Origin: Escherichia phage AnnaHegner_Bas87
DNA length: 64,000 nt
Strand: one strand, 5' to 3'
Sequence record: PQ850594.1
The translations under genes and the position numbers were made by a program. Positions 1 through 63,145 of this stretch are shown here, in pieces. Below the pieces are notes generated by a model. It had not been told where the DNA came from and searched no databases. It worked only from the letters and a program-made list of their open reading frames with translations. Numbering within the stretch: position 1 is the stretch's first letter; every line of letters starts with the position of its first letter.

Positions 1-1542
1 ATGTCGTTAGATAAAGAAATTTATGAAGCTCTAACTGGAGACAAGTTGAGTATAGAGGAAAAGAAAGCTTTGCTCAATATGTTAAAAGAAAGGGACCAGT
101 GGAGAAAATATAACAAGATGTTGGCTTTTAAAGCTTACGACTTTCAGAAGAAATTCTATGCAGCAGGGTTGAAGCATCGCTTTCGATTCCTGTGCGCAGC
201 TAACCGTGTTGGTAAATCTTACAGCGAGGCATACGAGTTTGCTTGTCATGTCACAGGTCGCTATCCAACTTGGTGGACAGGTTACAGGTTTAATCGACCC
301 ATATTGGCTTGGGCAGTAGGGATTACAGGGGACTCTACAAGAAAGGTATTGCAAAAGGAGTTGTTTGGAACACCTATCGGAAAGGATATGAATCTAATAG
401 GAACAGGTGTTATTCCTCGTGATGCTATCGTATTGGACACGATAGAACGAGATGGGAACAAATTACAGATTGTACAAATTAAGCATCAAAACGCGAGAGG
501 CGAGTTTGACGGTTTAAGTACATTAGAGTTCCGTTCTACCCAACAGGGTGAACATACATTGATGGGTGCTACAGTTGATTATATTTGGCTGGACGAAGAA
601 GATCCATATGAATCTATGGCAATCTTCTCTCAGTGTGTAACACGTACGCTTACAACTAAAGGTTTAGTTACTATTACAGCTACACCAGAGAACGGTTTAA
701 CAGAGCTGGTGGATAAGTTTATGAAAGGTGAAGGAGATGAGAACACAGGTTCTCTGTATTTCCAGAATGCTTCTTGGTGGGATGCTCATGTAGATTTAGG
801 TGGACATATCACTGACCAAGATATTAAAGACATGACTGAAGGTATCCCAACATGGCAGTTAGAGATGCGTTCAAAAGGTATGCCGTTGCTTGGTTCTGGT
901 TTGATTTATGATGTATCAGATGACATGATTAAGTGCGATCCCTTTGAGATACCTGATACGTGGAAACGTGTTTGTGCTATTGATATTGGTATCGATCACC
1001 CGACAGCTGCTGTTTGGACAGCATATGATGCTAACACTGATACGATTTATGTTTATGACTGCTATAAAGAAGGTGGGTTTACTCCGGTGTACCATGCACC
1101 AGCTATTAATGGTCGTGGTCAGTGGATTCCAGTTATTCTTCCTCACGATGCCGATAATATTGAGAAGGGAAGTGGTTCGTCTGTTGCTCAATTCTATAAG
1201 AATGCAGGGGTTAATGTACAGAGTGAGACCTTCTACAACAAGATTGGAATGGATGGTAAGAAGAACTTCTTTGTAGAGCCGGGAATTACTGATATTCGTG
1301 AACGTATGATGTCAGGTCGTTTTAAAATCTTTAATATTGCTTCGTGTGCTAAACTCTTTGAAGAGAAAGCTCGCTATCACCGTAAGGTTGGCAAGATTGT
1401 TAAGGAACATGATGACTTGATGGATGCTATGCGATATTCAGCTTGTTCTGTAACACATCGTGGACGTAGTAAGCATGATGCTAGTTATGGTAGTTCATCG
1501 CTTTATCAAGACAATATTAACAGATGGAATCAGACCTACTAA
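1..1542 (+). CDS. terminase large subunit
   Basis: 513-aa ORF with Walker A-like AANRVGKS near N-terminus; first gene of structural block, immediately upstream of portal. Confidence 0.75.
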   Translation: MSLDKEIYEALTGDKLSIEEKKALLNMLKERDQWRKYNKMLAFKAYDFQKKFYAAGLKHRFRFLCAANRVGKSYSEAYEFACHVTGRYPTWWTGYRFNRPILAWAVGITGDSTRKVLQKELFGTPIGKDMNLIGTGVIPRDAIVLDTIERDGNKLQIVQIKHQNARGEFDGLSTLEFRSTQQGEHTLMGATVDYIWLDEEDPYESMAIFSQCVTRTLTTKGLVTITATPENGLTELVDKFMKGEGDENTGSLYFQNASWWDAHVDLGGHITDQDIKDMTEGIPTWQLEMRSKGMPLLGSGLIYDVSDDMIKCDPFEIPDTWKRVCAIDIGIDHPTAAVWTAYDANTDTIYVYDCYKEGGFTPVYHAPAINGRGQWIPVILPHDADNIEKGSGSSVAQFYKNAGVNVQSETFYNKIGMDGKKNFFVEPGITDIRERMMSGRFKIFNIASCAKLFEEKARYHRKVGKIVKEHDDLMDAMRYSACSVTHRGRSKHDASYGSSSLYQDNINRWNQTY

Positions 1543-1547
1543 AAATA

Positions 1548-1570
1548 GGGGAGGCTTTGTCCTCCCTTTA
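1548..1570 (+). terminator. stem-loop (GGGAGG/CCTCCC) followed by TTTA between terminase and portal; weak terminator or attenuator
   Basis: 6-bp GC stem at 1549-1566, short T tract. Confidence 0.3.
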
Positions 1571-1607
1571 GTAGTTCCTTCCAAGCTATCACCGAGGGAG
1601 AGATTAG

Positions 1608-3851
1608 ATGGCTAAGAAGAAATTTAGTGAAGATGTTTTGGATGAATTACGCGTTGACCTTCAACGTCGATTCAATTATGCTCAAGGCTATGTAGACTTA
1701 GCTGTAAAAGGCTATGCTCGTGAGGCTTGGGAATACTTCTATGGGAACCTTCCTGCTCCAGTTACTGCTGGTAGTTCTAGTTGGGTAGACCGTACAGTAT
1801 GGGAATCAGTGAATGGTACGCTCCAAGATATCATTAACGTGTTCTGTTCTGGTGACGAAGCGGTAACTTTCGTAGCCGATAACCAAGAAGATAGTGATGC
1901 TGCTGACGTAGCCACTAAACTTGTCAACCAAATTCTGTTACGTGATAATCCGGGATACAATATTATCTCTTCAGCGGCACAAGAGTGTCTGGTTACACGT
2001 AACTCTTTTATTAAATATTATTGGGATGAACAAACTTCTACCCAAACAGAAGAAGCAGAGGGTGTTCCTCCGGAAGCTTTGGCTGCATATGTCCAAGGTT
2101 TAGAAGCTGGTGGGCTTCAAGATTTAGAAATCTTTACCACTGACAACGAAGATGGTACAGTGGATGTTAAAGTAACTTACAAACAAACAGTAAAACGCGT
2201 TAAAGTAGAATATGTTCCTTCAGAACAGATTTTTGTTGACGAACATGCTACCTCTTTTGCAGATGCTCAGTATTTCTGTCATCGCACACGTAAATCTAAA
2301 GAAGATCTGGTTGCTATGGGCTTCCCTAAAGATGAAATTGAAGCTTTTAATGACTGGACTGATACAATGGACACTACTCAATCTACTGTTGCATGGTCAC
2401 GTACTGACTGGAGACAGGATACAGATGCTGATATTGGTGTTGACACTGAAGATATCGCAAGTATGGTATGGGTTTACGAGCATTACATTCGTACTGGTAC
2501 GCTCGATAAGAACAAAGAGTCAAAACTCTACCAAGTTATTCAAGCAGGCGAGCATATTCTCTCTTGTGAAGAAGTAACTAGCATTCCTTTTGTAACATTC
2601 TGCCCTTATCCTATTCCGGGTTCATTCTATGGACAGTCGGTTTATGATATTACTAAAGATATTCAGGATTTGCGTACCGCTTTGGTTCGTGGTTATATCG
2701 ATAACGTAAACAATGCTAACTATGGTCGATATAAGGCGCTTGTAGGCGCGTATGACCGTCGTTCTTTGCTAGACAACCGTCCGGGCGGTGTAGTAGAAAT
2801 GGAGCGTCAGGATGCGATTGATCTCTTCCCATACCATAATCTACCTCAAGGTATCGATGGCTTGCTGGGAATGTCTGATGAGTTGAAAGAAACTCGTACT
2901 GGTGTTACTAAACTCGGTATGGGTATTAACCCTGATGTGTTTAAGAATGATAACGCATATGCAACTGTTGGATTGATGATGAATGCTGCTCAGAACCGTC
3001 TCCGTATGGTCTGTCGTAACATTGCTCACAACGGTATGGTTGAATTGATGCGTGGTATTTATAATTTAGTCCGAGAAAATGGTGAGGTTCCTTTACAAGT
3101 ACAAACCCCTCGTGGTATGGTTCAGGTTCATCCTAAACAACTGCCTGCTCGTCACAATCTACAAGTTGTTGTAGCTATCTCTCCTAGCGAGAAATCAGAA
3201 CGTGCCCAGAAACTAATCAGCCTGAAGCAATTGATTGCTGCTGATGCTCAGTTAGCACCTCTGTTTACTCTGGAGCAAGATCGTTACATGACTGCACAGA
3301 TCTTCGAGTTGATGGGAATTAAAGATACTCACAAATACTTAATGCCTCTGGAACAATATCAACCGCCAGAACCTTCTCCGATGGAAATCCTCCAGCTTGA
3401 GATGACTAAAGCACAGGTTGAGAACGTACAGGCTTCTTCTCAGAAGATGATTGCTGATGCATTCGACCAGCGTGAACGCACTACGTTTGAACAGCAGAAA
3501 GCTGCGGACGAGTTCAGCTTACGTCAAGAAGAACTGCAATTTAAGCAAGAGAATGCTGCTGATCAGATGACTTTGGAGAATCGTAAAGAAGACAACAGTG
3601 CTACACTTGAACAGGCTAAGCACAAGTTGGCTCTGCTCCAGCAACAGGTCCGTCAGTATGAATCTGTACTTAAAGAATTGCAGATGACTCTTAATCATCA
3701 GGTCGATGTTGAGAAAGTTGCAAATCAGGCTAAAATTCAAGATAAGACTTTGGAACTCCAAAAGAAAGAAGCAAATGAAACTAAGAAAGAACAGCAAAGT
3801 TCAATCAAAGATTCACGGATTCCTAACCGTCGTCTTGGTAGTAGAAAATAA
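1608..3851 (+). CDS. portal protein (probable)
   Basis: 747-aa ORF directly after terminase with strong RBS (GAGGGAGAG); coiled-coil C-terminal region; position and size typical of portal. Confidence 0.6.
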   Translation: MAKKKFSEDVLDELRVDLQRRFNYAQGYVDLAVKGYAREAWEYFYGNLPAPVTAGSSSWVDRTVWESVNGTLQDIINVFCSGDEAVTFVADNQEDSDAADVATKLVNQILLRDNPGYNIISSAAQECLVTRNSFIKYYWDEQTSTQTEEAEGVPPEALAAYVQGLEAGGLQDLEIFTTDNEDGTVDVKVTYKQTVKRVKVEYVPSEQIFVDEHATSFADAQYFCHRTRKSKEDLVAMGFPKDEIEAFNDWTDTMDTTQSTVAWSRTDWRQDTDADIGVDTEDIASMVWVYEHYIRTGTLDKNKESKLYQVIQAGEHILSCEEVTSIPFVTFCPYPIPGSFYGQSVYDITKDIQDLRTALVRGYIDNVNNANYGRYKALVGAYDRRSLLDNRPGGVVEMERQDAIDLFPYHNLPQGIDGLLGMSDELKETRTGVTKLGMGINPDVFKNDNAYATVGLMMNAAQNRLRMVCRNIAHNGMVELMRGIYNLVRENGEVPLQVQTPRGMVQVHPKQLPARHNLQVVVAISPSEKSERAQKLISLKQLIAADAQLAPLFTLEQDRYMTAQIFELMGIKDTHKYLMPLEQYQPPEPSPMEILQLEMTKAQVENVQASSQKMIADAFDQRERTTFEQQKAADEFSLRQEELQFKQENAADQMTLENRKEDNSATLEQAKHKLALLQQQVRQYESVLKELQMTLNHQVDVEKVANQAKIQDKTLELQKKEANETKKEQQSSIKDSRIPNRRLGSRK

Positions 3852-4097: not shown

Positions 4098-5179
4098 TGG
4101 CAAATGATTATATTGACCCGAACGATTTTAAATCTTTCCTCCAACTAGACGACTTAAAAGGCTCCTTTAAAGAAGAGCTTAGTCAATTAGAATCAGAACG
4201 TGAACCAGAAGTGAACATTGATGATGAATTCCCAGAACAGTCTGAGACTTTTGATCTTGATGCTTCCGACCTTCTCGGTGATGACGATACGTTAGCGTTC
4301 GAAGATGAAGATGGTTGGGAAGATCGTGAAGAGGAAGGCGAAGAAGAAGAGGAAGAGTCTGAGTTCTCTGATGAAGACGATGAAGAAGATGATTCCGGTG
4401 AAGCAGATCACGATGAAGCTGCTAACAGTGATGAAGATGGCGAAGAAGGTGAAGTCTTTGACGTAGATTATGAAACTGTTATCACCCTTCCTGATGGTCG
4501 TGAGATGACTATTGAAGAGTTGTCTAATGGCTATTTGACTGGTGCAGAAATGTCCGAACGTGAGACTACTTTGCAGCGTCATGTTGAAGCTTTTGAAGAA
4601 CGTGTTTCTGGCTTGGGTGATGTATTAGAACTAGCTGCCCTAGAAGCAGACCGAGTAATTGAAGATTACAACGGTTTTGATTGGGACAAACTCGCACAAG
4701 AAGATCCTCAAGCTTATGTAGAAAATAAACGTTTCTTAGAAAAATATACAGCTCGTCGCCAACAGCTTGAACAAGCTCAGCTTAAAATCAAGCAAGAAGC
4801 ACTAGCAAAAGAACAACAGCTCTTCCAAGCTAAATGTACTGAGTGTGTAAGCGTACTTAAACGTGAGATTCCTAATTGGGATGACAACTTGTATCAGAAC
4901 CTGATGCAGTATGCAATCGACTTAGGTGCTACAGAAGAAGAAGTGCTGAAAGAGAACCGTCCGTCAATCTTCCTAGCTCTACACAAAGCATACCAGTTTG
5001 ATAAAGGTAAGCAGCAGGTGATGGCTAAGATTAAACGTCCCGGCTCTCCACGCAAGGTTGTGAAGTCCGATGCTTCTAAGTCTCGTTCTTCCAATACGCC
5101 AGACAACGCTAAGGTTGCCAAGGCATTCTCAGAGGGTCGTATTCGTCACGAAGACGCATTTAAGTATCTCGTAGATTAA
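4097..5179 (+). CDS. scaffolding protein (probable)
   Basis: 360-aa highly acidic (E/D runs), helical/coiled-coil protein between portal and major capsid. Confidence 0.55.
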   Translation: MANDYIDPNDFKSFLQLDDLKGSFKEELSQLESEREPEVNIDDEFPEQSETFDLDASDLLGDDDTLAFEDEDGWEDREEEGEEEEEESEFSDEDDEEDDSGEADHDEAANSDEDGEEGEVFDVDYETVITLPDGREMTIEELSNGYLTGAEMSERETTLQRHVEAFEERVSGLGDVLELAALEADRVIEDYNGFDWDKLAQEDPQAYVENKRFLEKYTARRQQLEQAQLKIKQEALAKEQQLFQAKCTECVSVLKREIPNWDDNLYQNLMQYAIDLGATEEEVLKENRPSIFLALHKAYQFDKGKQQVMAKIKRPGSPRKVVKSDASKSRSSNTPDNAKVAKAFSEGRIRHEDAFKYLVD

Positions 5180-13566: not shown

Positions 13567-13785
13567 ATGAAAATGATGAAACAGGTAACTTATGGTCTAG
13601 CTTGCTTAGGGACAGGTTTTGTGATTTCCACAGCAGTACCTGTAAATGCAGTAGGCTCTCATTCTATTATAGAAGCTCCTGTAGAGAAGCTTAGTTCTCA
13701 ATGTAAACAAAGGACCATTCAAAATAATTTGGTTGTTATTTGCCCAGACGCTCAATCTTCAGCTCTGAGAAAAATTCTTCCTTAA
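13567..13785 (+). CDS. small protein with N-terminal signal/TM segment (holin or secreted protein candidate)
   Basis: 72-aa ORF, strong RBS, hydrophobic N-terminus, immediately upstream of lysozyme. Confidence 0.35.
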   Translation: MKMMKQVTYGLACLGTGFVISTAVPVNAVGSHSIIEAPVEKLSSQCKQRTIQNNLVVICPDAQSSALRKILP

Positions 13786-13818: not shown

Positions 13819-14310
13819 ATGGACGCTATCGCATTGCCGCCTGTACAGATGAGCCTAAGTCCGGCTGGTATGGAGTTTATCATGAAGCATGAAGGCATGA
13901 GAACTAAAGCCTATAAAGACTCCGCTGGAATCTGGACTATATGTGTAGGGGCTACGCGCGATATGAATGGGTATCCAGTAAGACAAGGATTAACGTATTC
14001 TATAGAGGATTGTCTAGCTCTGCTAGATAGAGACACACAAGACTCTGTTCGTGCTACTCAGAAAAACATAAGAGTTCCTATGCTAGCTCATGAATTTGAT
14101 GCTGTCACTTCTTTCAACTTTAATGTTGGTGGTGGTGCTTTGTCAGCTTCAAAACTTAGGAAAGTGATCAACGGAGATGTGAAGGGTGATGTTTACTCAG
14201 AGTTCTTACGTTGGGATAAGATAACTGTTAAAGGTGTAAAGCAGCGGAGTCCGGGACTTCACAATCGCAGGGTTGCAGAAGCAAATCTATACACTACAGG
14301 AAAATATTAA
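13819..14310 (+). CDS. lysozyme (GH24, T4-lysozyme-like) endolysin
   Basis: E-x8-D-x5-T catalytic spacing in ...KHEGMRTKAYKDSAGIWTICVGAT... Confidence 0.75.
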   Translation: MDAIALPPVQMSLSPAGMEFIMKHEGMRTKAYKDSAGIWTICVGATRDMNGYPVRQGLTYSIEDCLALLDRDTQDSVRATQKNIRVPMLAHEFDAVTSFNFNVGGGALSASKLRKVINGDVKGDVYSEFLRWDKITVKGVKQRSPGLHNRRVAEANLYTTGKY

Positions 14311-32573: not shown

Positions 32574-32798
32574 TTAAACTACACAGAACAAATATATTGC
32601 TGTGTCAGGACAAGGGATGTGATCACTAGGTTGCCTAATTCTATCCCATTCATCATCTTCTGCTATATAATAAGCCCAATAAGACTCACCATCGTTGATG
32701 AAGAATTTGAATGTTCGTCCCCAAATCTGATTATTATGTTCCCATACTGCATGAAATTGAGTAACACCTTCTGGTATTGTAAGTTCCGCTCTGATCAT
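32574..32798 (-). CDS. hypothetical protein
   Basis: 74-aa ORF. Confidence 0.3.
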   Translation of the reverse strand: MIRAELTIPEGVTQFHAVWEHNNQIWGRTFKFFINDGESYWAYYIAEDDEWDRIRQPSDHIPCPDTAIYLFCVV

Positions 32799-33094
32799 TG
32801 TATTCCTCTCTCCTTGAGAGCTTTAAGTAAACCATTATGGTTAGCAGCACAGGTTGTATAATTATCCTGATACCACTCAAGTGTTGTTGCAAATGCCACT
32901 CCCTGTGCACTCTGAAGTAAAGGGAGGTCTACATCACATTCAGCTTTTAGGTTTGTTGGTAAGGGCATTAGCTGCCTGCTGTTGTCGCTCATTGAACAAG
33001 CCATCAAACTAGAAGCGAGCAAAATCACCAAACAACTCTTTTGCTTTTTCTTTGTAAGCATTTTCTGCACCTTCTTGAGTGCTATGATAACCAA
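32795..33094 (-). CDS. lipoprotein, outer-membrane spanin (Rz1-like) candidate
   Basis: signal peptide with lipobox LMAC; likely start at internal Met (33061); overlaps 3' end of HNH gene. Confidence 0.4.
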   Translation of the reverse strand: MVIIALKKVQKMLTKKKQKSCLVILLASSLMACSMSDNSRQLMPLPTNLKAECDVDLPLLQSAQGVAFATTLEWYQDNYTTCAANHNGLLKALKERGIQ

Positions 33095-33533
33095 GCCAAA
33101 TTACTTTGTTTTGATATCCGATACGAGCACTCCATTTATTAATATCTGACCTGTATCCTACACCTTTTATTCCAGTTAAAGAGTTCTTTTGAACTATTTT
33201 ATTGGCATTGTTGAGGACAGGTGTTGCTTTTCTTAGATTGCTCCAAGAGTTATTAGACTTATCTAAATCTTTATGGTCTATTTGGAAATCGGGAATTTCT
33301 CCAGTTTTTATATACCAAGCAACTCGGTGAGCTTTGTATGTCTTTCTCTGAAAATTCAATGTTACATAACCAGCTTTTGTTTTACACCCTGCAACCTTTC
33401 CTGCGAGTCTTGAGTTCCACTGAGCGCTCTTATCTTTAGAATGTTTCCAGTACAGAAGACCGGAAGCCTCGTCATAAGACAGATATTTAATTAATTCTTT
33501 AATTTCAGTGCCTCCGCTGCTTGTTGTTGTCGT
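33009..33533 (-). CDS. HNH-AP2 homing endonuclease; N-terminal region lacks a canonical start codon
   Basis: open frame reads ...LSYDEASGLLYWKHS...AGYVT-NFQRKTYKAHRVAWYIKTGEIP...IDHKDLDKSNNSWSNLR... then AP2-like domain; only in-frame ATG/GTG/TTG is TTG at 33359. Confidence 0.55.
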   Translation of the reverse strand, partial: TTTTSSGGTEIKELIKYLSYDEASGLLYWKHSKDKSAQWNSRLAGKVAGCKTKAGYVTLNFQRKTYKAHRVAWYIKTGEIPDFQIDHKDLDKSNNSWSNLRKATPVLNNANKIVQKNSLTGIKGVGYRSDINKWSARIGYQNKVIWLGYHSTQEGAENAYKEKAKELFGDFARF

Positions 33534-33856
33534 TCATTGAAAAGTCCTACATACTCATCGCTAGCACACACATTGTAAAAAACTGGCTTAGTCTTTTCAT
33601 AATGCATCTCTTTGTAAATAGTTTCCGTGTTCTTCTTCCAGTTTGATAAACCAGTTAGAACTTTCTGAGCCACTTCATCAGCAGCCCTAGCCCTCTCAAT
33701 CTCTATCTCGTGCTGCTTCTTCTCTTGGTCAAGAGTGTTGCTATCATTTCGATATTGCTCAAACTTCATTCCACCAAAGAAAATAAGAGCTGTGAAAATA
33801 AGAAAGCCTATATTGTTTTGAAGCTTTTCCATTTTAACTCCAACGAAAAAAGCCAC
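33491..33856 (-). CDS. inner-membrane spanin (Rz-like) candidate
   Basis: N-terminal TM helix then charged coiled coil; 121 aa. Confidence 0.4.
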   Translation of the reverse strand: MAFFVGVKMEKLQNNIGFLIFTALIFFGGMKFEQYRNDSNTLDQEKKQHEIEIERARAADEVAQKVLTGLSNWKKNTETIYKEMHYEKTKPVFYNVCASDEYVGLFNERQQQAAEALKLKN

Positions 33857-43074: not shown

Positions 43075-43588
43075 ATAAAGACCCTGTCCACACCCACTCA
43101 GTGATCATGCCCTGAGGCAATACGAATCGAGCTTGCTCTGGAGCGATAAACTTAATCAATTCATCATACGACTCAAGAGCTGTTTCGTATGCCCGATTAA
43201 TCAGAACTAGTGCAGAGTTTTGTGCTCCTGTGGTGAGGAGATTCCCCGCACCTGCATGGAGGTCCGAAGGTCTTTCAAAAATCTCTTTAGGGATGAAGAG
43301 TTCAACTGCTCCATCTTTATACCGCCGGGACATTTCGTTCCATGAGAATCCAACTTGGTGTTTATTGAGTTGTCTAGCAATTGCAATGGGAGCCTTACAC
43401 CGAAAGGTGATTTGAGGGTGTCGAAAAGGAGTCACATGACGTTCCCGAGCTAAGAATTTAATCAACCGCTCGTCACGTTCGTTCAGATCACCATCTCGTG
43501 TCACACCAAAGGAAACCCTTGCTGCATTGACCACAGATTTGTCGGAACCCATGTGCTCTACCAGTGTTGCTTTTAAAAAATCAGACAT
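42938..43588 (-). CDS. thyX: flavin-dependent thymidylate synthase (ThyX)
   Basis: ...TPFRHPQITFR...ARQL.KH....SWNEMSRRY ThyX-like signature. Confidence 0.65.
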   Translation of the reverse strand: MSDFLKATLVEHMGSDKSVVNAARVSFGVTRDGDLNERDERLIKFLARERHVTPFRHPQITFRCKAPIAIARQLNKHQVGFSWNEMSRRYKDGAVELFIPKEIFERPSDLHAGAGNLLTTGAQNSALVLINRAYETALESYDELIKFIAPEQARFVLPQGMITEWVWTGSLFGWSELCRQRLSDHAQYEVRLFASTVDEELRKLFPISWDALREAH

Positions 43589-44048
43589 ACTTCAACTTCT
43601 CCTTGTTGTAAACTTCTTCTGCCTCTTCGCAAGAAGCAAAAGTCCCTAAATGTATATTCTTACCTTTGACGCCAATGATGGCTCGGTATCTATCACCAGA
43701 AGTTGTCTTACGAAGATACACACCCCTAGGAAGATTTCCTATCTTGCTATCAACATCATACTGCTTTCTGTTATGGCAGTTAGTGGATGGATTTACATCT
43801 CTTAGGTTATCAATCGAATCATTAAGTTTGTTCTGGTCGATGTGGTCAATTTCAAACTCAGGAAACTTTCCATGAACAAAGAACCAAGCAAGGCGACAAG
43901 CTCTGTAGCTTTTCCCTTCATACTCAATATAACGATAACCTAGAGAAGATACATATCCAGCTTGATTCCCTTTAACCCTTCGACCTTTTGTGTTCTTCCA
44001 GAAGAAGGCTCCAGTCTTAGGGTTATATTCCAAGTCATCTTGTATCAT
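43581..44048 (-). CDS. HNH-AP2 homing endonuclease
   Basis: N-terminal ...YNPKTGAFFWK...AGYV..LGYRYIEYEGKSYRACRLAWFFVHG...IDHID... plus AP2-like ...DRYRAIIGVKGKNIHLGTFASCEEAE... Confidence 0.65.
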   Translation of the reverse strand: MIQDDLEYNPKTGAFFWKNTKGRRVKGNQAGYVSSLGYRYIEYEGKSYRACRLAWFFVHGKFPEFEIDHIDQNKLNDSIDNLRDVNPSTNCHNRKQYDVDSKIGNLPRGVYLRKTTSGDRYRAIIGVKGKNIHLGTFASCEEAEEVYNKEKLKYV

Positions 44049-44055
44049 CTCTTCC

Positions 44056-44268
44056 TTAATAATAAACTTTTGGTACTACTACAATGAAACCCGCTGCTGT
44101 CATATATGCACGGTGGATTGAAATCTTCGAATCACGACCCATCTTCTTGAGGGCACGTTTAGTGCATCGTGCAGTTTTACGAGTAGCACACGTGTTAACC
44201 CTTGGATACTCCATCTCTGGATATTCAGAAACAACAGCCCAAAAATACACATCTTTTCCTTGAGTCAT
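44056..44268 (-). CDS. small protein, paralog family member 1 of 4 (C-terminal K-V/I-Y/H-Y)
   Basis: 70 aa; shared TR.EAR..K.. and C-terminal PKVYY. Confidence 0.45.
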   Translation of the reverse strand: MTQGKDVYFWAVVSEYPEMEYPRVNTCATRKTARCTKRALKKMGRDSKISIHRAYMTAAGFIVVVPKVYY

Positions 44269-44283
44269 AATAGCACCTATTCT

Positions 44284-44499
44284 TTAATAGTAAATCTTTT
44301 TATAAATCAGGTTGCTTCCACTTTCTGTTTCAATCCCTTTCTGGATTGTAATCTTAGAAGCACCGGTATTAGCAATTTTTAAAGCTCGTTTAAAGCGGCG
44401 AGCCTCTCTCCGTGTTGTGTATGAGGAGAAGCTAGGGATTGTACTATCAAAATTAAACCACTTAACTACCCAAAAAGTAATCCAAGGTTTCTTTTCCAT
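44284..44499 (-). CDS. small protein, paralog family member 2 of 4
   Basis: 71 aa; TRREARRFKRALK ... KKIYY. Confidence 0.45.
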   Translation of the reverse strand: MEKKPWITFWVVKWFNFDSTIPSFSSYTTRREARRFKRALKIANTGASKITIQKGIETESGSNLIYKKIYY

Positions 44500-44777: not shown

Positions 44778-44954
44778 TTATTCCTTGTTAATAAACAGAT
44801 TGATATGACGCTGGGTAGCAGGAACAACAATAAAAGATTTATACTGACCTTTTGCTAAGTCATGAGCAATCTTCTTTGTCTGACCAAGACCCATCACACA
44901 GCCACTAACGATAATGGCATGTGCTTGTAATTCTTCAGGTAGGTTTAGTTTCAC
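44778..44954 (-). CDS. unlisted small ORF (58 aa, GTG start)
   Basis: AAGGAA RBS; stop overlaps thioredoxin ATG (TAAAATG). Confidence 0.3.
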   Translation of the reverse strand: MKLNLPEELQAHAIIVSGCVMGLGQTKKIAHDLAKGQYKSFIVVPATQRHINLFINKE

Positions 44955-44966
44955 TCTTTGGATTCC

Positions 44967-45152
44967 TTATAGCATACAAAGAATAATAACAAGAGGTAGT
45001 GTTATAGCAAAATGTACCAGAACAACACTACCTAGCTTGATAGCTTTAACATCCTCTTCTGCTGGGTTTTCTTTAATTGCTAAATTTCGAGCTTTATATA
45101 TAACAGTACCAACTATTAACGACCACACGGCCCACACAATCAGTGAAATCAT
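44967..45152 (-). CDS. small membrane protein (2 TM), tandem paralog
   Basis: shared K.NP...K.IK.GS.ALV.F pattern with next ORF. Confidence 0.45.
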   Translation of the reverse strand: MISLIVWAVWSLIVGTVIYKARNLAIKENPAEEDVKAIKLGSVVLVHFAITLPLVIILCML

Positions 45153-45161
45153 ATCAAACCC

Positions 45162-45383
45162 TTATGCAGTCAACAGGTGGAGAAGGAAAGGAATGACAAC
45201 AGAGAAAACTACCAGAGCAATGCTACCATGTTTAATAGGTTTGGCATCATTTGGATTTTCTTTAAGCATCTGCTTCTGAGCCAGATAAACGATACCACCA
45301 ACAAGGATTGCCCATACAGACCATACGATTGCTGAAAACATACTCATATCCTTATAAAGAAGTTCGCCCCACCTCTTGAACAA
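45162..45383 (-). CDS. small membrane protein (2 TM), tandem paralog
   Basis: see above. Confidence 0.45.
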   Translation of the reverse strand: MFKRWGELLYKDMSMFSAIVWSVWAILVGGIVYLAQKQMLKENPNDAKPIKHGSIALVVFSVVIPFLLHLLTA

Positions 45384-45404
45384 AGAGACAGGGCGGAGGT
45401 TTGA

Positions 45405-45980
45405 TTAGTAAGACACATCACCACTGGAGTGGGACATGTTGCTCTTGACGAAGTAACAGAACTTGCCAAGACCTTCATTAATTTCTTGAAGCATACTCTG
45501 GTCCACTGGATAGGTGCACAAGTCTGAATCAAACTCATCCATCTTCTCAATGATACACATAAGAGTCATGCACATGTCGGAAAGCATACCGTCCATGTCG
45601 AGATCAGCGTTACCTTCTCGGAACCAAGCATGGCCTAAATAATTACTAGCAGTAGCATCCACTTTAACACAATGAAAGCGCATACGCTCTGCTATTCGGT
45701 CGCCTGCCTCACGAGCATAATCTTCTAGTTCATCGAACATACCATGAACACCTTGGAAACCAGCTCCAGAGACGTTCCAGTGGTAGTTCTTTGCTTTGAT
45801 GTGTAGAAGTTCAAGGTTAGCTTGCACACCACACAAGATGTGTTCTAAGCTGTTACCGCTAATCAGTTTATTCATTCCCTCAAGACGAGAGATAGAAGAG
45901 TCAGTAGTAGAGAATGGGTTGCTAGAACCCACTCGTGTTAGTTCTGGTAAGTCGAAGACATTATTATGCATTAGGTGCAT
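45405..45980 (-). CDS. Dps/ferritin-like protein
   Basis: ...KAKNYHWNVSGAGFQGVHGMFDELEDYAREAGDRIAERM... matches Dps ferroxidase region. Confidence 0.6.
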   Translation of the reverse strand: MHLMHNNVFDLPELTRVGSSNPFSTTDSSISRLEGMNKLISGNSLEHILCGVQANLELLHIKAKNYHWNVSGAGFQGVHGMFDELEDYAREAGDRIAERMRFHCVKVDATASNYLGHAWFREGNADLDMDGMLSDMCMTLMCIIEKMDEFDSDLCTYPVDQSMLQEINEGLGKFCYFVKSNMSHSSGDVSY

Positions 45981-46311
45981 CCCCTTCTAAGTTAGTTGAA
46001 TTAGCTACATTACGAGCAATGTTATCCATGACCTGCTGGGTAATAACAATGCAATTCTGTGGGTCTACAGACTTAGAACGCCCCATTTCAGGGTCATAAA
46101 CCTTAACACGCTTGGCTGTTGAGCCAGTAACTTGCAACACTTTGAGAAGATAACCTTGGTTTCCAATAGACCATGCAACAACATCACGATTCTTGATATA
46201 ACGACCAAGCATATCACGATGATAGAACTGCTGCATAACTTTAGCTTTGCTAATCTCTTCAGATGGCGGGGCCACTTTACTCAAATCTAACATAACTCTC
46301 TCCTGTTTCAT
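45964..46311 (-). CDS. hypothetical protein
   Basis: 115-aa ORF. Confidence 0.4.
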   Translation of the reverse strand: MKQERVMLDLSKVAPPSEEISKAKVMQQFYHRDMLGRYIKNRDVVAWSIGNQGYLLKVLQVTGSTAKRVKVYDPEMGRSKSVDPQNCIVITQQVMDNIARNVANSTNLEGDAPNA

Positions 46312-46330: not shown

Positions 46331-46339
46331 TATACATTT
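46331..46339 (-). promoter_or_regulatory. phage promoter-like motif (AAATGTATA, minus strand)
   Basis: ~20 nt upstream of start 46311. Confidence 0.3.
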
Positions 46340-46363: not shown

Positions 46364-46579
46364 CTAGTAATAAACCTTGCTGGATATGAATCCAGCACTG
46401 TTATGGATATTTTCAATCCAACGATGAATCTCCACCTTTTCAGCGATTCCTAAAGCTTTTGTAGCTTTTATAGTTTTCTTAGCAAGACGAGCCTCTTGTC
46501 TTGTGTTGAATAATTGAATACAATCACCACCAAGAGCTTTGTTAGCCCATTTAGTACGAACTGCCCATAATTTATCCAT
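46364..46579 (-). CDS. small protein, paralog family member 3 of 4
   Basis: 71 aa; TRQEARLAKK ... SKVYY. Confidence 0.45.
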   Translation of the reverse strand: MDKLWAVRTKWANKALGGDCIQLFNTRQEARLAKKTIKATKALGIAEKVEIHRWIENIHNSAGFISSKVYY

Positions 46580-46791
46580 TAGTAATGTACCTTTCCGCTG
46601 ATATAGAAACGACCTGATTTAAAGTCTTGAGCTTTGTGGATAGTGATCTTATTAATTGTGCTTTCACAACTTAACAAGAACTTCTTATGAGCGCGAGCTT
46701 CTTGACGGGTATTCCTAATACCCATTGACTCTGTACCACTGCTCCAGTGAATACGAACTACCCAACGTCTTTTCATTGTTCCAAACTCCAT
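46579..46791 (-). CDS. small protein, paralog family member 4 of 4
   Basis: 70 aa; TRQEARAHKK ... GKVHY. Confidence 0.45.
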   Translation of the reverse strand: MEFGTMKRRWVVRIHWSSGTESMGIRNTRQEARAHKKFLLSCESTINKITIHKAQDFKSGRFYISGKVHY

Positions 46792-62887: not shown

Positions 62888-63145
62888 TCAATAGAAGGTG
62901 TGTGTAGAGTCATCGTTCATACATAACCAAACGAAGAAGACAATCACACAGAAAGCAATAACACCGAGAACTGCAAGGATTATAGTGTTAGCTAATGTGG
63001 TATCTAACACGCTTTGCAGGTACATAAAGAATTGTACGATACCACATAACCCTAGCACGACCCCAACGACAATGAGGAGCCAATATGTGCAGAGAAGGAC
63101 TGCATCTAATAGTGATACATACTTTGGATGATCTTTATGTCTCAC
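62888..63145 (-). CDS. small membrane protein (2 TM)
   Basis: 85 aa, two hydrophobic helices. Confidence 0.4.
   Translation of the reverse strand: MRHKDHPKYVSLLDAVLLCTYWLLIVVGVVLGLCGIVQFFMYLQSVLDTTLANTIILAVLGVIAFCVIVFFVWLCMNDDSTHTFY

Follow-up and report, generated by a model that had tools for sequence, protein, structure and literature searches.

The stretch of DNA analysed here (the window, 64,000 nucleotides of sequence record PQ850594.1) comes from Escherichia phage AnnaHegner_Bas87, a phiEco32-like podophage of the Gordonclarkvirinae whose closest record is ECBP2, with 95% identity over the region of interest. The minus strand of this region carries, in order, a dCTP deaminase gene, small paralogous open reading frames (ORFs), a gp68-like gene, a Dps/ferritin-like gene, two small genes that we call copy B and copy A, a further small ORF (orf58) and a thioredoxin gene. 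Past thioredoxin, the order continues with two small ORFs, an HNH endonuclease and ThyX. Copies A and B, together with the expression signals near them and the lysis genes elsewhere in the window, are the subject of this report (Table 1).

The first-pass annotation had placed two adjacent small ORFs at this locus, and two minus-strand genes are indeed present there. They are separated by 9 nt and each has its own Shine-Dalgarno sequence (for copy A, TAAGGG, 6 nt 5' of the start). Their equivalents are annotated as hypothetical proteins in ECBP2 (ECBP2_0064/0063), NJ01 (NJ01_080/079) and SU7. As such, the pair is ordinary: lineage-restricted ORFans, already annotated as hypothetical in many GenBank records. 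New here are a corrected start for copy B, an account of the alleles, the cassette and the expression signals, and arguments against calling the pair holins.

The region had been taken to end at 45383, which is the boundary of an over-extended ORF. Read from a TTG, the longest ORF of copy B (45162..45383) encodes 73 aa; its start is almost certainly the ATG at 45341..45339, giving a protein of 59 aa (MFSAIVW...). This ATG is favoured because it has AAGGA 7 nt upstream, because the profile of its protein family (PHROG 9296) begins at residue 15 of the 73-aa TTG ORF, and because the annotated homologues are all 59 aa long. Moreover, the TTG-extended ORF would overlap a conserved RNA hairpin.

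Table 1. Positions of the genes and signals discussed in the text, numbered from the first letter of the window (TM, transmembrane).
Feature	Position	Strand	Description
Annotated holin	13567..13785		72 aa; PHROG 11161 'holin'; direct upstream neighbour of the plus-strand endolysin
Endolysin (lysozyme)	13819..14310	plus	PHROG endolysin, E=8e-46
Likely o-spanin	32795..33094	minus	lipobox-bearing ORF
HNH endonuclease	33009..33359		between the spanin genes
i-spanin	33491..33856	minus	Rz-like
orf58	44778..44954	minus	58-aa soluble ORF; PHROG 19504 (unknown function), E=1.5e-45; accompanies copy A
Copy A	44967..45152	minus	61-aa two-TM hairpin protein (predicted); accessory paralogue of the phiEco32 gp66 family; equivalents ECBP2_0063 and NJ01_079
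Copy B	45162..45341	minus	59-aa two-TM hairpin protein (predicted); positional orthologue of phiEco32 gp66; equivalent ECBP2_0064
Terminator-like RNA hairpin	45365..45395	minus	AACUUCUUUA follows it; located after the Dps-like stop codon and before copy B
Putative promoter motif AAATGTATA	46331..46339	minus	fits the tAATGTAtA element of gp36 (phage sigma) promoters

The gp66 family and its predicted membrane hairpin

Copies A and B are true paralogues. They are 45% identical over 58 residues (BLASTP, E=2e-17), and their Smith-Waterman score of 139 is far from what shuffled sequences give: full shuffles of copy B score 25 +/- 4.6, shuffles that keep the composition of TM1, loop and TM2 score 34 +/- 8.6, and in neither case do any of 5000 reach 139. 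Hydrophobic composition is therefore no explanation for the match. The first-pass annotation had described tandem paralogous proteins with two TM segments and a conserved loop, and both descriptions are borne out, the loop motif common to the two copies being KENP..K.IK.GS..LV.F with a two-residue indel.

Both proteins match PHROG 9296, a family of unknown function, over the whole of its profile (positions 1-59 of 59), with E=2.3e-30 for copy A and E=7.2e-32 for copy B. Judged by sequence, PHROG 9296 is the family of phiEco32 gp66, and copies A and B belong to it. A tblastn search with copy B returned 97 phage records, all of them Escherichia/Shigella phages or records labelled 'phage', and those whose taxonomy was checked are Gordonclarkvirinae. 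A DNA search with the region matched 98 records, 97 of which have a copy B homologue, once each. These two counts indicate that a gp66-family gene is essentially universal in the phage group.

Wider searches stayed close to this group. From 5.8e9 clustered proteins, two word-indexed searches retrieved 18 clusters, every one a close relative, and a full HMM search of 1.84e9 representative proteins gave six matches, four of them clear family members. A fifth, to P0019 (1106 aa, repetitive and Cys/Val-rich), was rejected as a spurious low-complexity hit. The sixth, P0020 (56 aa), is encoded on a distant phiEco32-like metagenomic contig, L006, in the order ferritin-like gene, P0020, thioredoxin and ThyX; this equivalent slot marks it as a true orthologue. 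Scans of copies A and B against Pfam and NCBIfam gave no match at E<=1, the PHROG scan gave only matches of unknown function, and a search of PDB sequences gave no match. That is, no remote homology beyond the phage group was found in Pfam, PHROGs, NCBIfam, the 5.8e9 proteins, the HMM search of 1.84e9 representatives or the PDB sequences, and the HMM search returned no homologue from bacterial or prophage sequence. A literature search on the function of gp66 found no paper. The gp66 family is thus a set of very small proteins, predicted to lie in the inner membrane and restricted to the phiEco32-like lineage.

Each copy has two hydrophobic segments. AlphaFold2, given an alignment of 13 sequences, predicts a tight helical hairpin (helices 2-28 and 32-60, mean pLDDT 91). 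Of the 14 members examined, 13 have all their Lys, Arg, Asp and Glu residues within positions 20-39, as do both window copies; the exception, P0006, has an extra C-terminal Glu. Across all family members examined, the loop has 3-5 Lys/Arg and the termini have none. Taken by the positive-inside rule alone, this pattern suggests that the loop (~20 residues, charged and helical) is cytoplasmic and that the topology is N-out/C-out, with both termini at the periplasmic face. In the model, nothing of either copy projects past the membrane at either terminus. Topology prediction, which the first-pass annotation had named as a check on its membrane-protein claim, agrees with it, as a helical hairpin with its charges confined to the loop and a predicted place in the inner membrane.

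The residues invariant in the family alignment are M1, S3, I5, W7, W10, G15, Y19, E28, P30, I38, S42, P53 and L58. Conserved residues concentrate in the membrane, especially at the outer-leaflet ends, and at the turn; the remaining loop is variable. Fold searches with the model were uninformative about function: they returned only the gp66 family itself (BFVD) or generic TM hairpins (E>0.4), which in the PDB are the HtrII transducer (rank 1) and ATP-synthase c subunits (TM-score 0.75-0.78, E>=0.48). Being generic hairpins at E>0.4, these matches were rejected as evidence for function. That copies A and B are membrane hairpin paralogues of the gp66 family is close to certain.

Allele types, the copy A cassette and expression signals

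The slot between the Dps-like and thioredoxin genes holds a homologue in phiEco32, NJ01, SU7, ECBP2, E20-1 and the distant contig L006. In phiEco32, this is a single gene, gp66, flanked by gp67 (Dps family) and gp65 (thioredoxin). The related Grimontviridae examined (ECO319P1, Privateer, SE131 and BUCT695) keep the gp68-like and Dps-like genes, often with thioredoxin and NrdD nearby, and have no two-TM ORF alongside. For this reason, we rejected an argument from guilt by association that would take the Dps-like gene as the guide to function.

Three allele types can be distinguished in the alignment. Type A (61 aa) ends in ILxML, type B (59 aa) has a KENP loop and ends in IPFLLHLLTA, and type C, the phiEco32 type (59 aa), has an EETP loop and the same C-terminus as type B. 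The motif IPFL(L/I)HL near the C-terminus is common to types B and C and to the distant P0020, and is absent from copy A. Types B and C share one genomic position, which holds a B-type gene in 23 records and a C-type gene in 74. The DNA of copy B itself looks mosaic, with codons 1-18 and 48-61 76% identical to type C and codons 19-47 63% identical to copy A, versus 44% to type C.

This B/C gene is the fastest diverging in its neighbourhood, with 51% aa identity to phiEco32 versus 79-93% for the neighbours compared (dCTP deaminase, gp68-like, Dps-like, thioredoxin and ThyX). Comparisons inside each type give dN/dS values of 0.04-0.36 (B), 0.08 (C) and 0.29 (A), and replacements are mostly conservative swaps between hydrophobic residues. 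The low ratios and the conservative swaps mark copies A and B as real, constrained coding genes.

Copy A has a narrower distribution. At an aa identity of at least 80% it occurs in 44 phage records (100% identical in 34 of these), next to either B-type or C-type genes. At an aa identity of at least 95%, orf58 occurs in 50 records, which include all the listed A-carrying records that were cross-checked. Six orf58 records carry copy B and no copy A (E20-1, EK010, TH42, TH34 and MLP3 among them); in E20-1, copy A is removed exactly. phiEco32 has neither copy A nor orf58, and the indel spans start codon to start codon. At the DNA level, copy A is 100% identical to its ECBP2 counterpart. Identities to SU7 are 100% for copy A, 99% for orf58 and 90.6% for copy B; identities to NJ01 are 91% for copy A, 94% for orf58, 79% for the Dps-like gene and 74% for thioredoxin, with copy B left out as a different allele type there. 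The A-orf58 cassette thus keeps 91-100% DNA identity where its flanks have 74-79%. Together with the clean indels, this identity argues against a recent duplication of copy A in this genome. As we read these alignments, copy A arose as a paralogue long ago; its spread, in company with orf58 and by recombination, is recent, and the phage can do without it. On the same comparisons, copy B is the core gene and copy A an accessory paralogue lost in some close relatives.

Expression of the pair would depend on signals further 5'. The motif AAATGTATA lies ~20 nt 5' of the gp68-like start, and AATGTATA stands at the equivalent position in phiEco32, NJ01, SU7, E20-1, ECBP2 and L006. In phiEco32, a gp36-dependent promoter, one of six mapped, lies 5' of gene 68 (PMC4331800, PMC8948821). 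AAATGTATA is presumed to be the promoter of a unit comprising the gp68-like and Dps-like genes, copies B and A, orf58 and thioredoxin. This places the pair 3' of a gp36-type gene 68 promoter motif, in an arm classed as middle in phiEco32.

Between this putative promoter and the pair stands the terminator-like hairpin, with a 13-pair stem that includes 7 G-C pairs (MFE -18 kcal/mol, z=-2.2). Its 11-pair core is identical in five phages, and in L006 the equivalent place is taken by a hairpin whose sequence differs and which has a GAAA loop and U-rich tail. An Rfam scan of the region gave no match. The hairpin is 24 nt from the start codon of copy B; this gap leaves no room for a promoter, so copies B and A would be transcribed by read-through. 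The hairpin probably attenuates or gates the expression of the two copies, or else stabilises the 3' end of the upstream transcript.

Lysis genes and candidate functions

The first-pass annotation had suggested that the pair is either a holin and antiholin or a set of superinfection-exclusion proteins, and had remarked on the distance from the lysozyme. The remark is accurate: the endolysin lies ~31 kb from copies A and B, on the opposite strand. An equivalent holin-endolysin pair appears in the ECBP2 annotation, and the pair is annotated alike across the phage group (PMC7881722, PMC4281155, PMC9965538); spanins are also listed for the group (PMC6139136). In the window, the spanin genes lie in the same minus-strand arm as copies A and B, 3' of a TAATGTATA motif. 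The ORF at 33009..33359 was considered as a spanin and rejected, as it encodes the HNH endonuclease. Since the spanins are placed like copies A and B, position and timing are not decisive against a lysis role for the pair.

A full lysis set can be named without copy A or copy B. On the other side stands the nature of the annotated 72-aa holin: its one hydrophobic segment, at the N-terminus, might just as well be a signal peptide. This holin was assigned by its position and its PHROG name, and the true holin could lie elsewhere. Since the endolysin lacks a TM or SAR segment at its N-terminus, some gene must supply a real holin.

Could that holin be one of our two copies? We consider it distinctly unlikely that they form a holin/antiholin pair or lysis-timing module, in which one paralogue would form holes or pinholes, the other would antagonise it and the annotated 72-aa holin would be something else. 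The idea draws on their small size and two TM segments, on the lack in copy A of the PFLLHL motif conserved in B-type proteins (as might be the case for a diverged regulator), on the grounds on which the present holin was named, on the scattering of the lysis genes, with spanins in the same arm behind a similar promoter motif, and on the plain endolysin. It is opposed by the anatomy of the proteins, which have no charged C-terminal tail, end inside TM2 (...ILCML and ...LHLLTA) and are predicted to be N-out/C-out. They show no similarity to holin families in Pfam, PHROGs or NCBIfam (E<=1), they are 31 kb from an endolysin that has a conserved holin-named ORF abutting it, and about half of the phages have a single copy. 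A lambda-like dual start in copy B was also considered and rejected, being unconserved and adding no Lys or Arg: the M-S-M double start occurs in the AnnaHegner_Bas87 window only, SU7 and E20-1 have V/M-N-M, phiEco32 and NJ01 have no upstream start, and the extra start has a Shine-Dalgarno spacing of 1 nt. A charged tail, endolysin linkage, family similarity and a dual start are thus four tested features of holins that the pair lacks, and small size and TM helices are all that it shares with them. Of the earlier suggestion, the membrane-protein part stands, as a predicted hairpin, and the holin part is disfavoured on these four counts; copies A and B are probably not the lysis holin of this phage. 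The 'holin' label found in E20-1 was rejected as evidence, since it sits on the thioredoxin gene and is a mis-annotation.

The reading we prefer, and hold tentatively at a little under even confidence, is that these gp66-family membrane hairpins have a host-interaction or exclusion role at the level of the membrane before late expression, rather than acting as a lysis trigger, with copy B as the core form and copy A as a variant. Under this proposal, two diverged paralogues would each form a hairpin in the inner membrane with the loop in the cytoplasm. The phage-sigma promoter 5' of the gp68-like gene would drive their transcription along with that of the 'middle' genes for replication and nucleotide metabolism, and the need to read through the terminator-like hairpin would probably keep their dosage low. 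They would act inside the membrane by packing their helices against each other or against a membrane partner from host or phage. Candidates for the contacts are the conserved small-xxx-small pair A/S11-G15, W7/W10 and, in copy B, P53-F-L-L-H57. Copy A may then be a specificity variant or a modulator of copy B. The fast divergence of copy B suits a host- or competitor-facing function. Several points tell against our preference: the mechanism is drawn from anatomy and context, copy B is core whereas exclusion and anti-host accessory genes are usually variable, the overall dN/dS below 1 gives no signal of positive selection, and the single-segment holin leaves room for a true holin elsewhere.

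Superinfection exclusion of the T4 Imm type, in which the hairpins would block DNA entry of secondary phiEco32-like or other phages and copies A and B would cover different targets, strikes us as unlikely. It would fit the predicted inner-membrane location and the pre-late gene arm. The near-identity of the A-orf58 cassette across diverged genomes, which suggests the recent horizontal spread of a useful accessory function, also speaks for it, as does the dimorphism of alleles (B against the phiEco32 type), most of which falls in the middle of the protein. It sits poorly with the core status of copy B, the lack of similarity to annotated exclusion proteins in PHROGs, Pfam and NCBIfam, the lack of bacterial or prophage homologues, and a predicted topology that leaves almost no residues exposed on the periplasmic side, the side from which an ejection apparatus would come in. 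Very unlikely, in our view, is a membrane tether or assembly factor for the replication and nucleotide-metabolism machinery, whose loop would recruit the Dps-like protein, thioredoxin or ThyX. Even a distant relative keeps its homologue between the Dps-like and thioredoxin genes, and enzyme genes share the arm and are presumably co-transcribed. But the loop that would do the recruiting offers only ~20 cytoplasmic residues and is the least conserved part across types (KENPNDAKPIK, EETPDKKGEIQ, KEEGKDKKK), and the Grimontviridae retain the gp68-like and Dps-like genes, with thioredoxin nearby, in genomes that have no two-TM gene. By analogy with ATP synthase subunit c, the hairpins might even be decoys that enter or adjoin the host c-ring or another hairpin assembly and alter membrane energetics in mid-infection, the paralogues tuning the effect; this we regard as highly improbable. 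Homology to subunit c was rejected: hhalign against E. coli AtpE gave a probability of 0.2%, there is no Pfam match to PF00137, TM2 of copies A and B has no Asp or Glu, and the fold resemblance is non-significant (Foldseek E>=0.48).

There is, finally, next to no chance that the ORFs are fortuitous or mis-called and yield no protein. They are very short and hydrophobic, and the supplementary files of the SU10 proteomics have no entry for the gp66-family gene. Such ORFs would not be expected to combine correctly spaced Shine-Dalgarno sites and tight gene packing with a dN/dS well under 1, changes that are mostly synonymous or conservative, conservation in 97 records and a distant syntenic contig, and a confident AlphaFold2 model; the conservation pattern effectively refutes this possibility.

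Collections for phage therapy against E. coli often include Kuravirus and Suseptimavirus phages. A solved function for the pair would put a name to a core ORFan of a phage group in therapeutic use, and would explain the recent spread of the copy A and orf58 cassette across diverged genomes. Should copies A and B prove to be the real holin, lysis genes would have to be re-annotated throughout the group. In practice, this analysis is useful mainly for correcting the start of copy B, for sorting out the alleles and the cassette, and for its evidence against the holin label, which has already been misplaced once, in E20-1.

Comparison with known systems

Like class II holins and pinholins, copies A and B are small two-TM phage membrane proteins, and a paralogue could, in principle, act as an antagonist. 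In class II holins and pinholins such as phage 21 S68, both termini are cytoplasmic (N-in/C-in), the C-terminal tail is charged, and the gene belongs to the lysis cassette. Copies A and B, in contrast, have the opposite predicted topology, no tail and no sequence similarity to these proteins, and they lie in the middle-gene arm.

The likeness to F-type ATP synthase subunit c (PF00137) is one of shape: both are helical hairpins with an N-out/C-out arrangement (predicted for copies A and B), the cytoplasmic loop is polar, and Pro occurs at the turn and again in TM2. Copies A and B differ from subunit c in having no counterpart of its TM2 carboxylate, its glycine-rich TM1 or its loop arginine.

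T4 Imm represents a type of inner-membrane superinfection-exclusion protein. Like copies A and B, proteins of this type come from a virulent coliphage, are very small and lipophilic, lie in the inner membrane and are expressed before the late genes (for copies A and B, both location and timing are predicted). They differ in that the two groups have no detectable sequence relationship and that copy B is a core gene.

The closest counterpart is phiEco32 gp66 itself, which matches in sequence (E ~1e-30), is of equal size, shares the two-helix architecture and likewise lies between a Dps-like gene (gp67) and a thioredoxin gene (gp65). It differs in being a single copy of the other allele type, 51% identical to copy B and 33% to copy A. 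To this shared gene, the AnnaHegner_Bas87 window, ECBP2, SU7 and NJ01 add copy A and orf58.

The gp68-like/Dps-like pair and its flanking hairpins

The gp68-like and Dps/ferritin-like genes overlap, and even the distantly related Grimontviridae keep them paired. Among the four Grimontviridae loci, two (ECO319P1 and BUCT695) have the pair directly upstream of an anaerobic ribonucleotide reductase gene, and in Privateer the gene that follows is a short ORF annotated ribonucleotide-reductase. Three of these four loci also have a thioredoxin gene close by. The arrangement hints that the pair serves nucleotide metabolism and not DNA binding.

Coordinates of features in the window
Feature	Position	Strand	Remark
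Rz-like i-spanin gene	33491..33856	-	
HNH/AP2-type homing endonuclease ORF	33009..33359	-	between 33491..33856 and 32795..33094
Lipobox-bearing ORF (LMAC)	32795..33094	-	
~70-aa basic paralogues (four)	44056..44268, 44284..44499, 46364..46579, 46579..46791	all -	shared terminus and motif
Dps/ferritin-like gene	45405..45980	-	
gp68-like gene	45964..46311	-	

A terminator-like hairpin with a U-rich tail (45365..45395, minus strand) separates the Dps-like gene from copy B, a two-TM hairpin protein gene. Its core is identical across five phiEco32-like phages; a differing hairpin with a GAAA loop occupies the same slot (4662..4700) in L006, a distant phiEco32-like metagenomic contig. We also observed a second terminator-like hairpin (46378..46397, minus strand), in which eight pairs are followed by AGGUUUAUUA. 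It lies directly upstream of the gene-68-type promoter motif, and the transcription unit before that motif may end there.

Annotated and candidate membrane proteins

Two GenBank labels in relatives are mis-annotations. In the relative E20-1 (OP293233.1; loci of mis-annotation at 1494..1769 and 2191..2757), the gene labelled 'holin' is a thioredoxin gene, and the 'integrase' label is carried by the Dps/ferritin-like gene in several relatives' records. The ORF labelled holin across the group (13567..13785, plus strand) encodes only one hydrophobic segment, which is N-terminal, with Lys residues before it and ..VNA-VG after it; the C-terminal part is hydrophilic, Cys-containing and 45 residues long. 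Its product might just as well be a signal-peptide or signal-anchor protein, and the holin label seems to derive from the position of the ORF alone. Separately, an 85-aa ORF in the early-gene region (62888..63145, minus strand) has two strong hydrophobic segments and no PHROG match at E<=0.01, making it another candidate uncharacterised small membrane protein.

HNH genes, spanins and a second small-gene family

The lipobox-bearing ORF is probably the o-spanin gene. In ECBP2 the two spanin genes are adjacent; here the HNH/AP2-type ORF stands between them. A related second HNH gene (43581..44048), missing from most relatives, sits between ThyX and the small paralogues.

These ~70-aa basic proteins are a second, uncharacterised multi-copy small-gene family, besides copies A and B (the paralogous two-TM proteins). 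They share a C-terminal (V/I)(Y/H)Y and a T(R)xEAR..K motif, and both of the two scanned matched PHROG 4939. The four genes form two tandem pairs, one on each side of the Dps-TM-thioredoxin block. At the equivalent place phiEco32 has three such paralogues (gp69-71), as does L006.
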